Shown: piece after piece, positions 1,011 to 23,767 of the stretch
How positions within the stretch are numbered: position 1 is the stretch's first letter
How the letters are laid out: each line of letters begins with the position of its first letter
NCBI GenBank assembly: GCA_014874305.1
Contig: JACWAO010000028.1
Coordinates: 1 to 28,716 of the forward strand
Direction of reading: 5' to 3'
Source: Candidatus Colwellbacteria bacterium
GTDB lineage: Bacteria > Patescibacteriota > Minisyncoccia > UBA6257 > Colwellbacteraceae
Length of the DNA stretch: 28,716 bases
The notes under the pieces: generated by a model
The model's input: only the letters and a program-made list of their open reading frames with translations
The model's database searches: none
What the model was told of the DNA's origin: nothing
Position numbers and translations under genes: made by a program

Positions 1011-1040
1011 TTGACACCCCTTGTTTCGCGGGGATACAAT
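1011..1040 (+). promoter_or_regulatory. sigma70 promoter giving a probable leaderless redoxin-trxB transcript
   Basis: TTGACA (1011-1016), 18 nt, TACAAT (1035-1040); ATG follows 6 nt later at 1047. Confidence 0.7.
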
Positions 1041-2234: not shown

Positions 2235-2822
2235 ATGGAGGAAGGTAAAACGAGGGAGATTTTACGCAGACTTGCCGATTATGGAGATCGCGGCGATCGG
2301 CTTTCTTTTGGGAAACGCGTTGCTGGTGAAAACGGTACGCAAACCGTCTACAGTCTTGTAAACAGGCTGAAGCGGCAGGGATACGTAAGAAAAAAGAAAG
2401 AGAACGGAAAAAGCAGGTCCAACTGGGTTCTTACGAGGCTTGGGTTAAAGAAGCTGAGATTGCTTGAGGATGAGAGCCGTGTATCGGTTGGCGTGAATCC
2501 GGACGAGTTTTTAGGAGACAGCAAGCCGAACGTAATAATTTTCGACGTACCGGAGAGGTATTGCGATAGGCGAAGGAAGTTGCGTGCTCTTTTGATATCA
2601 TTGGAATATTCGATGATACAGAAAAGCGTCTGGTTCGGCTCGCGCCGGCCATCGTGGAAGTTTTATGAAAAACTGAACGAGTTATCATTAACGCCATTCG
2701 TAAAAGTGCTGGAAGTAAGCGGCAAACTTGTCAAAAAACTGCTTAACACCTCAGCTATGTTGTTCGTGCTTATTTACGGATTAAGAATGGTAAGTGTCAT
2801 GAGCTGTGAGGCAGTGAGTTAA
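2235..2822 (+). CDS. Winged-helix + PaaX-central/Cas2-VapD-like ferredoxin-fold protein
   Basis: N-terminal TVYSLVNRLKRQGYV...WVLTRLG wHTH pattern; C-terminal VIIFDVPE...RRKLRALL..LEYSMIQKSVW is the PaaX/Cas2-like signature. No CRISPR array or other cas gene in the window. Confidence 0.75.
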   Translation: MEEGKTREILRRLADYGDRGDRLSFGKRVAGENGTQTVYSLVNRLKRQGYVRKKKENGKSRSNWVLTRLGLKKLRLLEDESRVSVGVNPDEFLGDSKPNVIIFDVPERYCDRRRKLRALLISLEYSMIQKSVWFGSRRPSWKFYEKLNELSLTPFVKVLEVSGKLVKKLLNTSAMLFVLIYGLRMVSVMSCEAVS

Positions 2823-2863
2823 TCAGCGCCCTCAAATTTGTTGCGAATACCAATCCGCCCTCG

Positions 2864-2897
2864 CTAAACACCCTGTCCGATCGGACAGGGTGTTTAG
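2864..2897. repeat. Perfect 34-bp palindrome, copy 1
   Basis: CTAAACACCCTGTCCGA|TCGGACAGGGTGTTTAG, no spacer, no U-tract, 41 nt after the 2822 stop. Confidence 0.95.
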
Positions 2898-3125
2898 TAA
2901 AAGTTGATAAGAGTGCTTGATAGGTTCTGGAATAGGGTCTTACATTAGAAATGTGGAGCCTCACAGGCCTCATCAGGCGACATCCTTCCGAAGCGTATCC
3001 TTATTCGACAAGGCTAAGAAGAATGCACTCGTTCTACCTTTACGGATGGAGTTTTCTCTGTTGCGCGAAGGAGGGTAGAGCCTCATTTTTTAGCGTTAAC
3101 TTTTTACGTACCTGATTAAACTAAT

Positions 3126-3653
3126 ATGATTATCTCTTACAGGGCTTGGCCCAAGTGGGTGAAGTACTCGGCCGTTCTTATGGGCGTCGTGTTTATCTCG
3201 TCCTCGGCTTTTTTCGCGTGGTCAGGATATCTGAGTCCCGCCGCTAAAGAGAACCGCGCCCAGCAAAAAGCGGTTGAGGAGATAAAGATGTACCAGAGAA
3301 ATTACGAGACGGCGATGAGCGCGGACACGTATGGCGGTAAAACCCCGGAGGAGACGCTTAAGATGTTCGCCCAAGCTATTCAAAGTGATGATATCGATTC
3401 GGCTGTTAAGTATTTAGAGTTTGAGTATGACGGCAAACCAAAAAAAGAGCTGGAGGATGGCTTAAGAAAGGCTATCCAGGACGGTAAAAAGAGCCTGATT
3501 TTGGAGATTATAGATAAAGCGGAGTTTGATCCCCAGTCGTCTGATAAAGATGTTGCGTGGTTCTCCGTTAATAATGAAAACGGTATGGCTGAGTACAGTA
3601 TTATGTTGTCCTATAACAGATATGCAAATATATGGAAAGTAGAAGATATGTAG
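3126..3653 (+). CDS. Hypothetical single-TM-anchored extracytoplasmic protein
   Basis: N-terminal TM helix then soluble domain with DTYGGKTPEETL motif; ends ...IWKVEDM; overlaps the next gene by 22 nt. Confidence 0.75.
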   Translation: MIISYRAWPKWVKYSAVLMGVVFISSSAFFAWSGYLSPAAKENRAQQKAVEEIKMYQRNYETAMSADTYGGKTPEETLKMFAQAIQSDDIDSAVKYLEFEYDGKPKKELEDGLRKAIQDGKKSLILEIIDKAEFDPQSSDKDVAWFSVNNENGMAEYSIMLSYNRYANIWKVEDM

Positions 3654-6600
3654 TTTTAGTTTTCTTACTCGCCGGGATTGTTTTTATAAGCAATAAAGCT
3701 TTGGCGTATGGTTATAACACACATGCTTATTTAACGCGGGAAACGATTAATTTTTATAACAAGAACTTTCCAGCGAAGCAGATATCGCAGGATGGCGCGA
3801 GTTTCCTGATAGACGGATCGAGGCGGGAGGATGATATACCGCGCTCGATGGATCATTTTTACGATCCGGTAAACAATAGAGGGATAACGTATGATCCTGT
3901 TATCAAAGCGACTATACCGATTCCGGGGAGCTGGCTGAACGCCAAGGAGTGGTCGCAGAACCCGGCGGCGCAGAACGAACTGACGTACAAGGTGCCGGAA
4001 ACTATAGGATCGGTACTTACCGCGATCCAGCAGAGGGACATCTCCAAGATCTCGAGCGAGACGAACTTTACCTGGCAGAAGGCGATTAACCTCTACCTTA
4101 ATGGTGATAAGAACGGCGCGATGTTCGCGCTTGGGCATGTTCTGCACTTGTTGGAGGATATGTCCGTACCGGCTCACACGCGGAACGATCCGCATCCTGG
4201 GGGAGATTCTTATGAATTTTATACTGACAGGTTTCAGTTATCGACTCCAGACAAAAACTTGTCCGCGAAAGTTGATAAATTACAGCCGGTCGGCCTAGGA
4301 GACATAAACTCCTATTTTCAATCACTAGCGACTTATACTAATAATAATTTTTATAGCGACAGCACTATTGGATTAAACAGGGGATACGCCAACCCAGAAG
4401 CAGACTTGACCAATATAGAGCCAAATGAGAATCACTTTTATATATTGGGTAACACGGACAACCAAAAATATTATTTAGCTGTTAAGAGAAGTATGTCGGC
4501 TGGAGTTTTAAGTGCTCCATCAGATATAAAAATAGATGACGATGTTGTAAAAAATTCTTACTGGAACGTGCTTTCGGCAAAATCCGTCCAGTATTCGGCG
4601 GGGGTTATTGATTTGTTTTTTAAAGAAGTATCGAAGGCGCAGAGCGATCCGGTGTACGCTAAGAATTTTAATGTCGAGCCAAAATCGTTTATAGGCCAGA
4701 TAGTTAGTTCCGTCGCCTCGTTTACCGGAACAATAAAAGATACCGCAGTCCAGGCGTTACGCCAGTTGGTCGGCGGGAATAGCGGAAACCTGGTTCAGGT
4801 GGTTGATCTTACTTCCACGAGCAGTGTGGAACACGCGGTAAGTTCAACGCCGGTGGTGCAGGGGAATGTTAAATACAAACTGCAGATTACCGAGATAATG
4901 TACAACCCCGAGGGGAGCGATGCCGGAAAGGAGTGGGTTGAGATTGAAAATCTGGATCAAGTTCCTATCGACTTAACCAGGCTAACCCTGCGAGTTGATG
5001 GGTCAAATCATAAAATTAATAAATCATCCGGCTCTTCTTTACTGCCGCCTGGCGGGTATGCGGTTATAGCCGACGACCAGGCGACGTTTCAATCCTTATT
5101 TCCATCTTATTCGGGTATTTTGGCAGACAGCGCAGTATCGCTCAAGAATTCCAGCGGTAAAATAGAGACGCTGAACGGGGACGTTTTATTGGATGGCGTC
5201 ACTTATTATTCGGATTGGGGAGGAAACGGAGATGGCAACTCCCTCCAGCTTATAGGCGGCCAATGGCTTGCCAGTACACCGACCCCGGGCGCGGCTAACA
5301 AGATCGCGTTTGTACCTTCAAAGCTCAAAATCCCGCCCGGGGAAGGCGAGACTACGGCGGTTCCCGCTATGGAGGCGACGTCGACAAAACCCGCGTCTAC
5401 ATCAACCGGCGATTCGGAGAATAAACGAAAACAACAGACAACTTCTACTTCCCCGGTTGCGCAAATTTGCTCTTTTGCGGATTCCGGCGCATCGGGCTAT
5501 CATAGTGTCATCTTTAATGAGGTCGCGTGGATGGGGAGCGTTAATAGTGCCAATGACGAGTGGATAGAACTTAAAAACATCTCTAATTCCGCGGTCGATA
5601 TTTCCGGATGGCATGTTTTAAGCGGAGACGGGCATATCAAGGCAATCCTGCCGGAGAGGGCCGTTATTTCTCCGTCTGGTTTTTACTTACTGGAGAGGAC
5701 GAACACAAATTCGATTCCAGGCGTGACCGCCGATTTTGCCTATACCGGAAGCCTGGTAAATACCGGAACTGATCTGAAGCTTTTTGATAATAACTGTGCG
5801 TTAGTCGATAGCGTGAGTGGAGCGAACGGATGGCTGGCGGGAGATTCTTCCTTAAGGAGAACTATGGAGCGCGATCTTAACGGGAACGGGTGGCACACAT
5901 CAAATGCTGTGGGCGGTACTCCGAGGAGAGAGAATGATTCGGCGTTCCTCTCTCAATCCGGAGGCGGGGGAGGCGTGGTTATTTCTCAATCGCCAGCTCT
6001 TAATAACCAAGATACTCAGGAGACGAGCACGCCGGTTGTTTATCTGAAACTATTGATAACGGAGGTTCAACTGGCCTCGTCGAGCAGTACGAAGGATGAG
6101 TTCGTGGAGATTTATAACCCGAACGATACGGAACTGGACCTGACCGGCTGGTCAGTGATGAAGAAAACAAAAACCGCCGACTCGTTTTCTACGTTCGCCA
6201 AGGCGGACCTGTTCGATGGGAAGTTGATCAAGTCAAAAAGTTTTTTAGTTATCGCCAATTCAGAGGGCGGCGTTAGTGGAGACATTTTTACGACTTATGG
6301 CGTATCGGAGGACAACTCCATGGCGATCAAGAACCCGAACCACGAGGTTGTCGATAAAGTTGGTTGGGGAGAGGCGGGGGATTGCGAGGGAATGTGCGCG
6401 CCTCAGCCTACAGACGATAAAAGCATTGAAAGGAAGGTGGAAAACGGCGAGTTTACGGATAGCGGAGATAATTTTTCAGACTTCGAAGTTGGCGAGTGTC
6501 CGCACCCGGGCGCTTACTCGTTGACTTGCGCGGGCACAACGTCGACCGCCACCTCGACCGATATGACGACAGCGTCTTTGCCGTTAATGAGCGGCTTCTC

Positions 6601-8344
6601 CGCGAGCTACAACCCCAATGATTTAAAAATATCCCTGAGTTGGGAGCCGTTTGTTCCCGCCTCTACGGCGAGCACTGGTACGGAGGAAACGGCGACCAGT
6701 ACGGTTGAACCGCGGGTTTTTTACACGGTTCAGCTTTCCACGTCGACCTCCTTGGATGAAGTGGCGTGGGAGAGCGATTATATAAGTAACGCGTTAGTTA
6801 CGCCAACCTCTTCTACGAGCACCAGCTTGCGGATAGACGAGGTCGGCAGGGGTTATGGGTTTAGAGTCGCGGCCTTGGATGAAAACGGGACGGCGCTGGC
6901 CGAGGCGACTTCCAGTGTTAATGTGCCGAGCCTTTTATCCAGTTTGAACTTTTATCCTGATCCGAGAAGCGGGAACGACGCGTATTTGATTGATGTGTTT
7001 TACCAGGGGATACCGTTTATTCCTCCCTTGTGGAGCGGAACGTCCGGAACCCAAACCAACTGGAGGCTTATGGCTTTCTATCTGGATACCGAAGCTAATA
7101 AGCCAGAGTATTTTAACGTATCAACAAGCAGTTTTAGTGTTAAATACCAGAGTTGCGGCGGTGCTCAGGTATCCGCTCCGTCTATTGTTTTTCCTAGCGG
7201 ATTATGCGAGTACGGACCGTACTCCCAGGATGTTTCTCTGGCAATGCTTGAGGACCCGACCCACATCCTGCTTTCCTCGGCGCTCTCGGTTTCCGGCCTC
7301 AACCTCTCTACCAGTAGTTTTATTACGGTTGCTTATTACGATCGCGACCCCGACGTCTTTGGCGACAGGAGGTTTAAGCTGGTGGCCGTAGACCGCGATC
7401 GTTATTATCTTCAGGATTTGAGTCTGGAAGAGGTACAAAATCTTCATTCCGCCCCGGAGTTTTCGTCCGCGTTTACAGCCCAGTTCAAGCCGGACAGTTC
7501 CGCGCTGGTCGTGAGTTGGGATCCGGCTCATGACACCGACAGTTGGGACGGCTCTATTAGTTACGAGATAAACATTTCTCCCGCGGCTGGTATTGACGAT
7601 TCGCTTTGGCAGGCTCTCGTTCCGGAGCCGAGGGCGGACTTCTCCGATCCCCAGCACATGAGTTACAGATATTCCAGATTCGCGAATATCGGCGATGATT
7701 TTGCGATCGCCCTCAGAGCCAAAGATGAGTTTGGCAAGTCTAGCGCGGTAACGACCTCGACTTGGCAGTATCCGGCGACGGACATTGCAGTATCTCAGGA
7801 GCAGTGGAACGGTGAGTGGGGAAGCGGGTTTGGAAGCATCGATTCGCACCTGAACTTTTCCGCTCCGGACTCCGCGAGCTTAGAGAAGATATCGTCATCA
7901 AGCGCGGTGTTGTTTGATAAGTTTACCGTTAAGGTAAGGCAGAATGGAATCGGGGGATACGCGCCGAGCGATTTGAGGTTATCCATATACGCGGACGCGA
8001 GCGGAACTCCTGATTTTTCTAGCCCGCTTGGGGAGAGCGTAATCAGGAACTTGGATCCGCTTTCTGATCCGCAGGATATAACTTTTAGTTTTGCCTCTCC
8101 CGTAACTCTGCTGGCTGAGAGCGGCGGTTGGGCGGTGCTGGATGTCGCTGGTTATGGCGGACTGCAGGGATACTTCAATAATTCTTGGCAGAACGCGGTT
8201 ACGAGCGGCGACTTGTATTCCGGCGGAGATTCGGGATTCGGATCGGGACGAGGCACCAACAGTGATTGCAGTCAGTGCGCGTTTGGCGGATACGCTCCTA
8301 GCGGGGTAGACTGGTATATGAAACTTGGTCTGACTAAGCTATAA
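3632..8344 (+). CDS. Large secreted protein: Zn-dependent phospholipase C/S1-P1 nuclease domain, three lamin-tail domains, S/T-rich linkers, C-terminal beta-sandwich (Fn3-like) region
   Basis: Signal peptide ending ALA|YGYNTH; HFYDP; LGHVLHLLEDMSVPAH (H-x3-D-x5-H). LTD motifs: ITEIMYNP..EWVEIEN, IFNEVAW..DEWIELKN, LITEVQ..DEFVEIYNP. Confidence 0.8.
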   Translation: MESRRYVVLVFLLAGIVFISNKALAYGYNTHAYLTRETINFYNKNFPAKQISQDGASFLIDGSRREDDIPRSMDHFYDPVNNRGITYDPVIKATIPIPGSWLNAKEWSQNPAAQNELTYKVPETIGSVLTAIQQRDISKISSETNFTWQKAINLYLNGDKNGAMFALGHVLHLLEDMSVPAHTRNDPHPGGDSYEFYTDRFQLSTPDKNLSAKVDKLQPVGLGDINSYFQSLATYTNNNFYSDSTIGLNRGYANPEADLTNIEPNENHFYILGNTDNQKYYLAVKRSMSAGVLSAPSDIKIDDDVVKNSYWNVLSAKSVQYSAGVIDLFFKEVSKAQSDPVYAKNFNVEPKSFIGQIVSSVASFTGTIKDTAVQALRQLVGGNSGNLVQVVDLTSTSSVEHAVSSTPVVQGNVKYKLQITEIMYNPEGSDAGKEWVEIENLDQVPIDLTRLTLRVDGSNHKINKSSGSSLLPPGGYAVIADDQATFQSLFPSYSGILADSAVSLKNSSGKIETLNGDVLLDGVTYYSDWGGNGDGNSLQLIGGQWLASTPTPGAANKIAFVPSKLKIPPGEGETTAVPAMEATSTKPASTSTGDSENKRKQQTTSTSPVAQICSFADSGASGYHSVIFNEVAWMGSVNSANDEWIELKNISNSAVDISGWHVLSGDGHIKAILPERAVISPSGFYLLERTNTNSIPGVTADFAYTGSLVNTGTDLKLFDNNCALVDSVSGANGWLAGDSSLRRTMERDLNGNGWHTSNAVGGTPRRENDSAFLSQSGGGGGVVISQSPALNNQDTQETSTPVVYLKLLITEVQLASSSSTKDEFVEIYNPNDTELDLTGWSVMKKTKTADSFSTFAKADLFDGKLIKSKSFLVIANSEGGVSGDIFTTYGVSEDNSMAIKNPNHEVVDKVGWGEAGDCEGMCAPQPTDDKSIERKVENGEFTDSGDNFSDFEVGECPHPGAYSLTCAGTTSTATSTDMTTASLPLMSGFSASYNPNDLKISLSWEPFVPASTASTGTEETATSTVEPRVFYTVQLSTSTSLDEVAWESDYISNALVTPTSSTSTSLRIDEVGRGYGFRVAALDENGTALAEATSSVNVPSLLSSLNFYPDPRSGNDAYLIDVFYQGIPFIPPLWSGTSGTQTNWRLMAFYLDTEANKPEYFNVSTSSFSVKYQSCGGAQVSAPSIVFPSGLCEYGPYSQDVSLAMLEDPTHILLSSALSVSGLNLSTSSFITVAYYDRDPDVFGDRRFKLVAVDRDRYYLQDLSLEEVQNLHSAPEFSSAFTAQFKPDSSALVVSWDPAHDTDSWDGSISYEINISPAAGIDDSLWQALVPEPRADFSDPQHMSYRYSRFANIGDDFAIALRAKDEFGKSSAVTTSTWQYPATDIAVSQEQWNGEWGSGFGSIDSHLNFSAPDSASLEKISSSSAVLFDKFTVKVRQNGIGGYAPSDLRLSIYADASGTPDFSSPLGESVIRNLDPLSDPQDITFSFASPVTLLAESGGWAVLDVAGYGGLQGYFNNSWQNAVTSGDLYSGGDSGFGSGRGTNSDCSQCAFGGYAPSGVDWYMKLGLTKL

Positions 8345-20214: not shown

Positions 20215-20254
20215 AATGTTAAAGATCAAGACGATCGTCAGTATCTTTAACATT
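20215..20254. repeat. AT-rich interrupted palindrome between tsaD and valS (terminator- or operator-like)
   Basis: AATGTTAAAGAT-caa-GACGATCGTC-agt-ATCTTTAACATT: 12-bp outer arms and a self-complementary core. Confidence 0.7.
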
Positions 20255-23528: not shown

Positions 23529-23767
23529 TCGTGAACCGCGTACCGTGAATCGTGACGCCGAACGTAGATGCTTCGCTTTCTTTGCCTTGCGGCAGGCAGG
23601 GCTCAGCATGACGAATATAAAATTATCGAAGTTCAACTTCGATAATTCGTAGAGGCGAAGGATGACAACACGTGTGGATCGCGAATCGTAAAACTTGAAA
23701 CACATTTCGCTATTCGCGTTTCATAGTCCATGATACGTGGTCCACGGTACGGGGTTCACGATTCGCG
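23524..23767. repeat. Inverted heptamer-array element with nested palindromes, between hsp20 and tRNA-Glu
   Basis: 21-bp inverted arms 23527-23547 and 23743-23763 (20/21 match). Nine consecutive 7-mers on the minus strand (23701-23763). Internal 13-1-13 palindrome at 23621-23647 and a REP-like unit at 23566-23612. Confidence 0.8.

Follow-up and report, generated by a model that had tools for sequence, protein, structure and literature searches.

A regulator-like gene and its palindrome

The stretch of DNA analysed here (the window) is contig C10, 28,716 nt long, of assembly GCA_014874305.1, a Candidatus Colwellbacteria genome (Patescibacteriota) of 607 kb in 106 contigs that is 98.6% complete and has a G+C content of 48%. 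On its forward strand, 28 nt after a thioredoxin-reductase-like gene (trxB, 1289-2206), an open reading frame at 2235-2822 encodes a 195-aa protein, here termed the regulator, and 41 nt past its stop codon begins a perfect palindrome (2864-2897) in which two 17-nt arms are 100% complementary with 0 nt between them. This palindrome is the longest perfect one in the window, its exact sequence is single-copy in the 607-kb genome, and it can be read as outer boxes CTAAACAC and GTGTTTAG placed about the dyad centre CCGATCGG. Gene and palindrome had been singled out in a first-pass annotation as a candidate protein-plus-cognate-site module. The analysis described below indicates that the module is real; the palindrome is treated as a putative operator and is referred to as a 'family A' site.

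The first-pass annotation had described the protein as a winged helix-turn-helix (wHTH) joined to a ferredoxin fold with an intact FD motif, and this description was borne out. Residues 99-162 match Pfam PaaX_M (PF20803, 'PaaX central Cas2-like domain') with 31.3 bits against a cut-off of 24, and scores for CRISPR_Cas2 (PF09827, 21.9 against 23.8) and TIGR01573 (22.8 against 24.5) fall just under their cut-offs. Weak PadR, TrmB and MarR matches were found at residues 35-75. The N-terminal PaaX model of Pfam gave no match up to E 1, and Pfam searches of the protein found neither the PaaX_C sensor domain nor a transposase-type or HUH/Y1 domain. An AlphaFold2 (AF2) model built from 29 homologs (mean predicted local distance difference test score, pLDDT, 87.5) shows a wHTH at residues 1-84, a linker helix, a β-α-β-β-α-β unit at residues 99-160 and a C-terminal helix at residues 163-194. 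By the model and structural alignment the winged-helix domain is encoded at 2235-2486 (+); the Cas2-like ferredoxin-fold domain (residues 95-162), on which Pfam, AF2, Foldseek and the alignment agree, lies at 2517-2720 (+).

The winged helix superposes on the DNA-binding domains of MarR, MepR and PadR proteins, some of them DNA-bound, with Z scores of 10-11 and a root mean square deviation of ∼ 2 Å over 75-81 residues. In a whole-chain Foldseek ranking, E. coli PaaX (8a39) came out on top; below it stood another protein of PaaX type (3l09), then MarR-type repressors and chains of Cas2. A phmmer search of the Cas2-like domain against the PDB returned chance homeodomain matches only. The protein contains the motifs IIFDVPE (F103-D104) and IQKSVW, and its FD pair aligns with the YD of a Cas2-like chain. 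Invariant residues of the Cas2-like domain are F103, D104, P106, E107, R113, Q129 and S131, and D104, E107, R113, Q129 and S131 are without variation in 151 family representatives. Taken together, the protein is most likely a 'mini-PaaX', that is, a MarR-like winged helix with a Cas2-like domain, the part that supplies the dimerisation motif of PaaX, but lacking the C-terminal sensor of PaaX.

The Cas2-like domain is followed by a single hydrophobic helix (residues 163-195; 2721-2822 (+) with the stop codon), placed by the AF2 model and by homolog comparison. This C-terminal extension is shared with L005 and L008 (same genus) and with L019, and is absent from the remaining family. The final codons of the hydrophobic tail and the first intergenic bases (2789-2826) are also a hot spot of strain divergence: in run X6, 13 of these 38 nt differ, compared with about 4% in other parts.

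The palindrome was confirmed as spacer-less and as lacking a U-tract, both of which had been noted before. The 3′ flank reads TAAAAGTTGATAAG, and the site is missing from a terminator scan of the window. The corresponding RNA is predicted to form a hairpin with a 16-bp G+C-rich stem (-31.1 kcal/mol; z -6.7 against shuffles), so the stem of an intrinsic (Rho-independent) terminator is present but the U-rich tract is not, and this assignment is unlikely. Directly 3′ of the palindrome, TAAAAGTGGATAAG is conserved within the genus. Across four strain-variant metagenome assemblies the palindrome is without listed difference; in one strain variant the adjacent gene differs at 36 positions (about 4.5%). 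In runs X4, X5, X6 and X8 contigs break exactly at the palindrome (2864-2897), and one contig consists of the 34-mer alone. De Bruijn assembly is weak at self-complementary words, and perfect palindromes of this size fragment k-mer assemblies; such fragmentation may explain why some sites lie near contig ends (C49, C104) in this 106-contig genome.

Palindromes beside related genes and elsewhere in the genome

The gene had been called an orphan, which holds with respect to cas and paa genes but not with respect to the protein itself, as a HMMER profile of its family recovers 6299 cluster representatives (E ≤ 0.001), the best 150 of which have a median length of 196 aa. Homologs are present in 31 of 61 genomes of same-order relatives and in 75 of 301 genomes sampled across the phylum, with up to 10 copies per genome. 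Close family members are named 'CRISPR-associated endonuclease Cas2' by the NCBI pipeline and public sources, and a full-text literature search found no paper on the family or its palindromes.

The surroundings of 93 family genes were fetched and their flanks (∼ 200 nt before the start and 150 nt after the stop codon) were scanned for spacer-less palindromes with arms of at least 14 bp and at most one mismatch. A qualifying palindrome was found at 49 of the 93 genes and on both sides of 11 of them; at a looser threshold, 9 of the first 30 loci were bracketed by the same palindrome twice. The flanks hold 60 palindromes in 38.8 kb (1.55 per kb), and the rest of the loci, 198 kb in all, holds 8 (0.04 per kb), an enrichment of ∼ 38-fold. 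In the complete genome G083 (699,981 bp), which carries five family genes, 10 long CGGCCG-centred palindromes were found, 7 of them within 300 nt of these genes and at least one for each gene; the remaining 11 long palindromes are ordinary A/T-tract terminator-like hairpins. Moreover, in four same-family genomes with no match to the protein, neither the gene nor such a palindrome is present at the trxB locus.

The palindromes of the relatives are spacer-less, perfect and 32-52 bp long, and they share a dyad centre. Among 50 gene-palindrome pairs, C occupies ±3 in 48, G ±2 in 42 and A -1 in 36, giving centres that are mostly CGATCG and otherwise CGGCCG, CTATAG and similar, common to the whole family. 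Arm positions 4-16, by contrast with this centre, are variable and similar only among close orthologs. Arm similarity follows protein similarity (Mantel r 0.29, a value reached by none of 2000 permutations), and paralogs inside one genome carry differing arms. Long palindromes within about 100 bp of homologs that co-vary with the protein are what the first-pass annotation had put forward as a check on its idea; those found here, within about 150 nt, together with the enrichment and the paralog-specific arms support the pairing of protein and site. A genome-specific origin of the dyad hexamer, for example one linked to restriction-modification, was discarded, multi-copy genomes mixing CGATCG, CGTACG, CCATGG and CGGCCG.

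An orthologous site is present in all four genus members that were compared. In these orthologs the outer boxes and centre are kept and the 5-7-bp linkers vary, being asymmetric in L005 and L006. Downstream copies in relatives start 0-60 nt past the stop codon, and upstream copies stop 8-25 nt short of a -10 box, itself 3-8 nt before the ATG; with the -10 box so placed, the upstream copies cover the -35 region and lie outside the gene's own mRNA. In L035, L038, L044, L052 and L063 only 3-8 nt separate the sequence TATAAT, TATACT or TAATAAT from the ATG and a Shine-Dalgarno sequence is lacking, an arrangement that suggests, from sequence, leaderless mRNAs for these regulator genes.

The host genome contains 11 CGATCG-centred quasi-palindromes, against 0.07 expected, and all are intergenic. 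It also encodes a second paralog on contig C104, which is 29% identical to the regulator and matches PaaX_M with 58.1 bits, and each of the two paralogs has its own site type. In the five family-A sites, outer boxes of the form ACTAAACA(C/T), mirrored on the opposite arm, frame the centre CCGATCGG. Besides the window site (C10:2864), they lie at C6:12479, which is 136 nt upstream of a COX2/COX1 quinol-oxidase operon; at C49:6443, after a transketolase subunit gene; at C50 about 280-316; and at C68 about 175-211. At C50 and C68 the outer boxes are kept, and either the linkers are asymmetric or the centre is degenerate. An extended -10 sequence, TGnTATAAT, follows three of the five family-A sites by ∼ 12-15 nt. 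The operon on C6 (9406-12343; L144) encodes a heme-copper quinol/cytochrome oxidase, COX2 with COX_ARM plus COX1, and is an observation in its own right, as this genome is ultra-small; both a family-A site and an extended -10 box precede the operon.

In each of the six family-B sites, a free and asymmetric linker of 3 bp joins an outer box of 11 bp to a 10-bp centre, GACGATCGTC. Three are placed around the C104 paralog gene and one is in the window, a 40-bp quasi-palindrome at 20215-20254 between tsaD and a class I aminoacyl-tRNA synthetase gene. Two further palindromes of the host genome (C47:1919 and C72:14130) have the family-B centre GACGATCGTC with other arms and each lie 63-77 bp from a true family-B site, which may point to a third specificity or to binding at the centre alone, even though the assembly has only two family genes.

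Other palindromes of this genome belong to different classes. Terminator-like hairpins of the ordinary kind carry A and T tracts here, and their loops are not conserved. On C84, three palindromes with the canonical parS core TGTTTCACGTGAAACA (7407-7432, 7483-7522 and 7654-7681) lie within 280 bp and presumably form the ParB loading region. A separate family of the form AATTATCGAAGTT N AACTTCGATAATT, with arms of 13-14 bp that stand 1 nt apart, is represented in the genome by four related copies (window 23621-23647, beside tRNA-Glu; C48:5124; C61:1508; C62:1135) and may be the site of another regulator.

The surroundings of the regulator gene are conserved as well. Upstream (1011-2206, +; Pfam Glutaredoxin and Pyr_redox_2), a glutaredoxin-like gene (grx) ends at 1289, where trxB begins, and is preceded by a promoter-like site, TTGACA-18-TACAAT, at 1011-1040 (+), an 11/12 consensus match and a possible start of a grx-trxB-mini-PaaX transcript. 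The order grx-trxB-regulator is repeated in the loci of 12 relatives, where it is followed by a membrane-anchored protein of 175-190 aa and a giant protein with the N-terminal sequence AYGY.TH.YLT. In the window the corresponding pair (3126-8344, +; from open reading frames and a Pfam search) is a candidate regulated operon, encoding a 175-aa membrane-anchored protein without a Pfam family and a 1570-aa protein with lamin-tail domains. The latter (3632-8344) is a secreted or surface protein with three lamin-tail domains and the conserved AYGY.TH.YLT N-terminus, and proteins of its type are always accompanied by the membrane-anchored protein of no known family. In L020 and L024 the regulator is divergent from the downstream pair, which places the palindrome between both units. 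As the trxB-linked position is kept across many genera, the window copy has been inherited vertically, and for this copy the synteny rules out a recently mobile cassette.

Between the palindrome and the next operon lies a promoter-like sequence, TTGATA-18-TACATT, at 2917-2946 (+), identified by consensus match only. Five nt past the palindrome is a degenerate DnaA-box-like 9-mer (2902-2910, -; two mismatches to TTATCCACA). The corresponding 9-mer of genus relatives is nearer the consensus, with one mismatch in L006 and L008, and perfect DnaA boxes adjoin the regulator gene in 11 other relatives' loci (L010, L011, L012, L013, L017, L018, L020, L023, L027, L028 and L030). In all, the homolog loci (188 kb) contain 13 perfect boxes (TTATCCACA), where 1.4 would be expected; every one is in a regulator-adjacent intergenic region, they occur in same-order relatives only, and the L018 palindrome itself holds two. 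The same observation extends, besides window 2902-2910, to C47:2208 and C50 about 272-280 of the host genome (G000). A reading of the palindrome as a replication-origin mark was set aside, the likely oriC of the host genome being a cluster of three perfect DnaA boxes on another contig (C8:7301-7471).

A proposed duplex operator and the alternatives

The domain architecture of the protein, the association of gene and palindrome, the pattern of site conservation and the position of the sites relative to -10 boxes are all observed directly, and we propose, with a probability of roughly 0.65, that the regulator is a PaaX-like transcription factor without a sensor, and that its dimer binds the palindrome as duplex DNA, which would be its operator. 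Binding itself and dimerisation are inferred, and the effect would be either repression or activation. In the model, the dimer would be stretched along the 34-bp palindrome as duplex DNA, with the two winged helices reading the paralog-specific outer boxes (of the ACTAAACA type) and the pair of Cas2-like domains lying over the CG-rich dyad centre that is common to the family. Binding would control the promoters adjacent to each site. Candidate targets would be, within the window, the operon for the 175-aa and lamin-tail proteins and perhaps the end of the grx-trxB-regulator transcript, and elsewhere in the genome the four other family-A sites, including the one ahead of the quinol-oxidase operon.

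Duplex recognition is favoured because the boxes and centre are conserved while the linkers vary or lose their symmetry, as seen within the genus and in family B, and because the C50 and C68 sites retain the boxes despite asymmetric linkers or a degenerate centre. It is further favoured because the upstream copies of relatives cover the -35 region and because three of the five family-A sites precede TGnTATAAT. The E. coli PaaX operator, TGATTC-N27-GAATCA, is 39 bp long with distant half-sites, and PaaX represses its own promoter (PMC9493321). This geometry suits a Cas2-like dimer that carries a winged helix at either end, and the operator is of the same size class as the 34-42-bp sites described here. 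Of the three modes of recognition that had been proposed at the outset, the duplex operator is thus the best supported, whereas the emphasis on a nuclease or RNA-processing role after the manner of Cas2 and VapD gained no support, although the invariant acidic motif keeps such a role conceivable.

Several points weigh against the operator model. The window regulator gene has no upstream copy of the site, unlike many relatives, and about half of the sampled family genes are without a long palindrome by the criteria used. If the promoter-like sequence at 2917-2946 is real, the centre of the palindrome lies near -72, off the core promoter. Between sites of one genome, 64 arm differences are mirrored and 25 unmirrored, with some of these counts inflated by 1-bp shifts; since duplex recognition does not require mirrored changes, they argue for a role of self-pairing. 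Finally, the invariance of D104, E107, R113, Q129 and S131 is more than plain dimerisation needs, and it keeps a catalytic or metal-binding role in view.

Alternatively, the palindrome could work as an RNA hairpin that terminates the grx-trxB-regulator transcript without a U-tract or stabilises its 3′ end; the Cas2-like domain (which resembles an RNA recognition motif) might bind or cut this hairpin as a form of RNA-level feedback. Consistent with such a role are the predicted stability of the hairpin, the placement of the window site and of relatives' downstream copies shortly past the stop codon, the compensation of many between-site differences in both arms, and the fact that some Cas2 and VapD proteins are ribonucleases. 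We nevertheless regard it as unlikely, as there is no U-tract and the terminator scan passed over this site, whereas ordinary terminators here have A/T tracts and unconserved loops. Moreover, the upstream copies precede the -10 box of leaderless-type promoters and so are not part of the gene's mRNA, and the would-be loop is a conserved palindrome (C at ±3 in 48 of 50), which an RNA hairpin does not need. In family B, and likewise at the L005, L006, C50 and C68 sites, pairing is lost in the linkers but the boxes are kept, and the few interior mismatches, judged by eye, show no excess of G.U on the sense strand. A coincidental adjacency, with a generic palindrome unrelated to the protein, is very improbable. 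Similar palindromes do stand beside unrelated genes (transketolase subunit, tsaD, quinol oxidase operon) and about half of the family genes have none, but chance would have to account for the ∼ 38-fold enrichment in gene flanks, for a palindrome at all five family genes of G083, for the joint absence of gene and palindrome at the trxB locus of four relatives and for the conservation of the site at the orthologous position in four genus members.

The mirrored changes, and with them the perfect, spacer-less form of palindromes of 32-52 bp, would also suit recognition of a cruciform or of single-stranded hairpin DNA by its shape, perhaps with nicking or cutting through the Cas2-like acidic motif, in a self-propagating or rearranging cassette comparable to repetitive extragenic palindromic (REP) elements and their REP-associated tyrosine transposase (RAYT). 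Many genes have the same palindrome on both sides, solo copies occur elsewhere in the genomes, the invariant D104 and E107 align with the strand-1 Asp of Cas2, and the family is multi-copy, with up to 10 genes per genome. We consider this reading unlikely too, because the trxB-linked copy has stayed in position across many genera, which indicates vertical inheritance, the paralogs are old (29% identity), and the solo sites share boxes but differ in their linkers rather than being identical copies; the protein has no transposase-type domain either. Furthermore, G063, a genome without the family that was chosen as a control, has a gene of the Trp-repressor family (PF01371, L133:17058-17507) bracketed by its own 32-34-bp perfect palindromes; of ten such sites (for example 697021 and 697568, with the core ACTATCAATACATCGATG...), the eight beyond the bracketing pair are near-identical copies spread over 786 kb. 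A plain repressor gene with this layout indicates that bracketing by long perfect palindromes is a habit of regulators in these genomes and needs no nuclease-like domain. Identical arms could also be maintained by template-switch correction, an established mutational mechanism that acts on quasi-palindromes, with neither selection nor a function for the hairpin. A related and similarly unlikely suggestion takes D104, E107, R113, Q129 and S131 as an active or metal-binding site located on the dyad that reads or nicks the CG-rich centre, possibly as a cruciform. The proteins would then be site- and structure-specific DNA-acting enzymes enclosed by their own targets, and perfect symmetry a by-product or a requirement of the reaction. 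Alongside its proposed role as an operator, the palindrome may have a further function, forming a cruciform or a hairpin at the transcript end.

The duplex operator is a conventional mechanism, and as judged from sequence it is most likely the correct reading, supported by the box and linker pattern, the loci without the gene, the G083 census and the Trp-repressor parallel. Patescibacteria have tiny genomes and few recognised regulators, and a family with more than 6000 representatives, present in about a quarter of the sampled genomes in up to 10 copies, may be one of their main transcription-factor families. It is large, mislabelled as Cas2 or PaaX in databases and apparently undescribed. 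As each member has a long and recognisable site, regulons could be read directly from uncultivated genomes; in the present genome the sites suggest redox- and oxygen-related targets (trxB, quinol oxidase) together with a giant surface protein. With its matched pairs of protein and site, the family is also a natural collection in which to study how DNA is read by a winged helix combined with a Cas2 fold. A practical warning follows for annotation, in that solo 'Cas2' calls in Patescibacteria genomes are no sign of CRISPR.

Relation to Cas2, REP/RAYT systems, MarR/PadR repressors and PaaX

The likeness to Cas2 (5zyf, 6jhz, 2ivy, 3exc) lies in the ferredoxin-like fold, with TM scores of 0.54-0.67 normalised to the target, and in a motif that aligns with the strand-1 Asp and the Q.S(V/A)F of Cas2. 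Here, however, the domain is fused to a winged helix, and family members go with palindromes rather than with CRISPR loci. The genome has no match to cas1 and the 98.6%-complete assembly no CRISPR-like array, as the first-pass annotation had already stated for this stretch, and with model scores under the cut-off an assignment as a CRISPR Cas2 was rejected.

In REP/RAYT systems (REPINs or REPtrons) a gene is likewise flanked by copies of a repeat able to form a hairpin, and further copies lie scattered at the ends of other genes. The mini-PaaX protein differs from RAYT in lacking an HUH/Y1 domain; there are only 5-8 sites per genome, which are alike in their boxes and not over their whole sequences, and the position of the gene is syntenic across genera. 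The similarity to MarR/PadR repressors comprises both the DNA-binding fold (Z 10-11) and an autoregulatory placement, with relatives' sites lying over the promoter. Dimerisation of mini-PaaX would use the Cas2-like domain rather than a helical bundle, and its sites, at 32-52 bp, are about twice as long as MarR/PadR operators, which measure roughly 16-24 bp.

PaaX is the phenylacetyl-CoA-responsive repressor of the paa catabolon, and its helical PaaX_C domain binds phenylacetyl-CoA. The 195-aa protein is not a canonical PaaX: it lacks PaaX_C, having just 33 residues after the Cas2-like domain, and does not match the PaaX N-terminal Pfam model. Nor does the 98.6%-complete assembly contain a match to PaaA or PaaC, in agreement with the initial remark that no paa operon is present, the neighbours of the regulator being grx, trxB and a gene for a lamin-tail-domain protein. 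The mini-PaaX site is moreover perfect and spacer-less with a conserved CG-rich centre, many mini-PaaX genes of relatives are bracketed by two copies of it, and the Cas2-type motif FD..PE / QKSVW is strictly conserved, while to our knowledge canonical PaaX is without this motif. Despite these differences, PaaX (E. coli W 8a39; Jannaschia PaaX-like 3l09) is the closest known system. The two share an N-terminal winged helix followed by a Cas2-like central domain, PaaX is the best whole-chain structural match of the 195-aa protein, and the long inverted-repeat operator of PaaX, with its distant half-sites, has a predicted in silico counterpart here in the 34-bp palindrome and in the copies that relatives carry over their own -35 regions.

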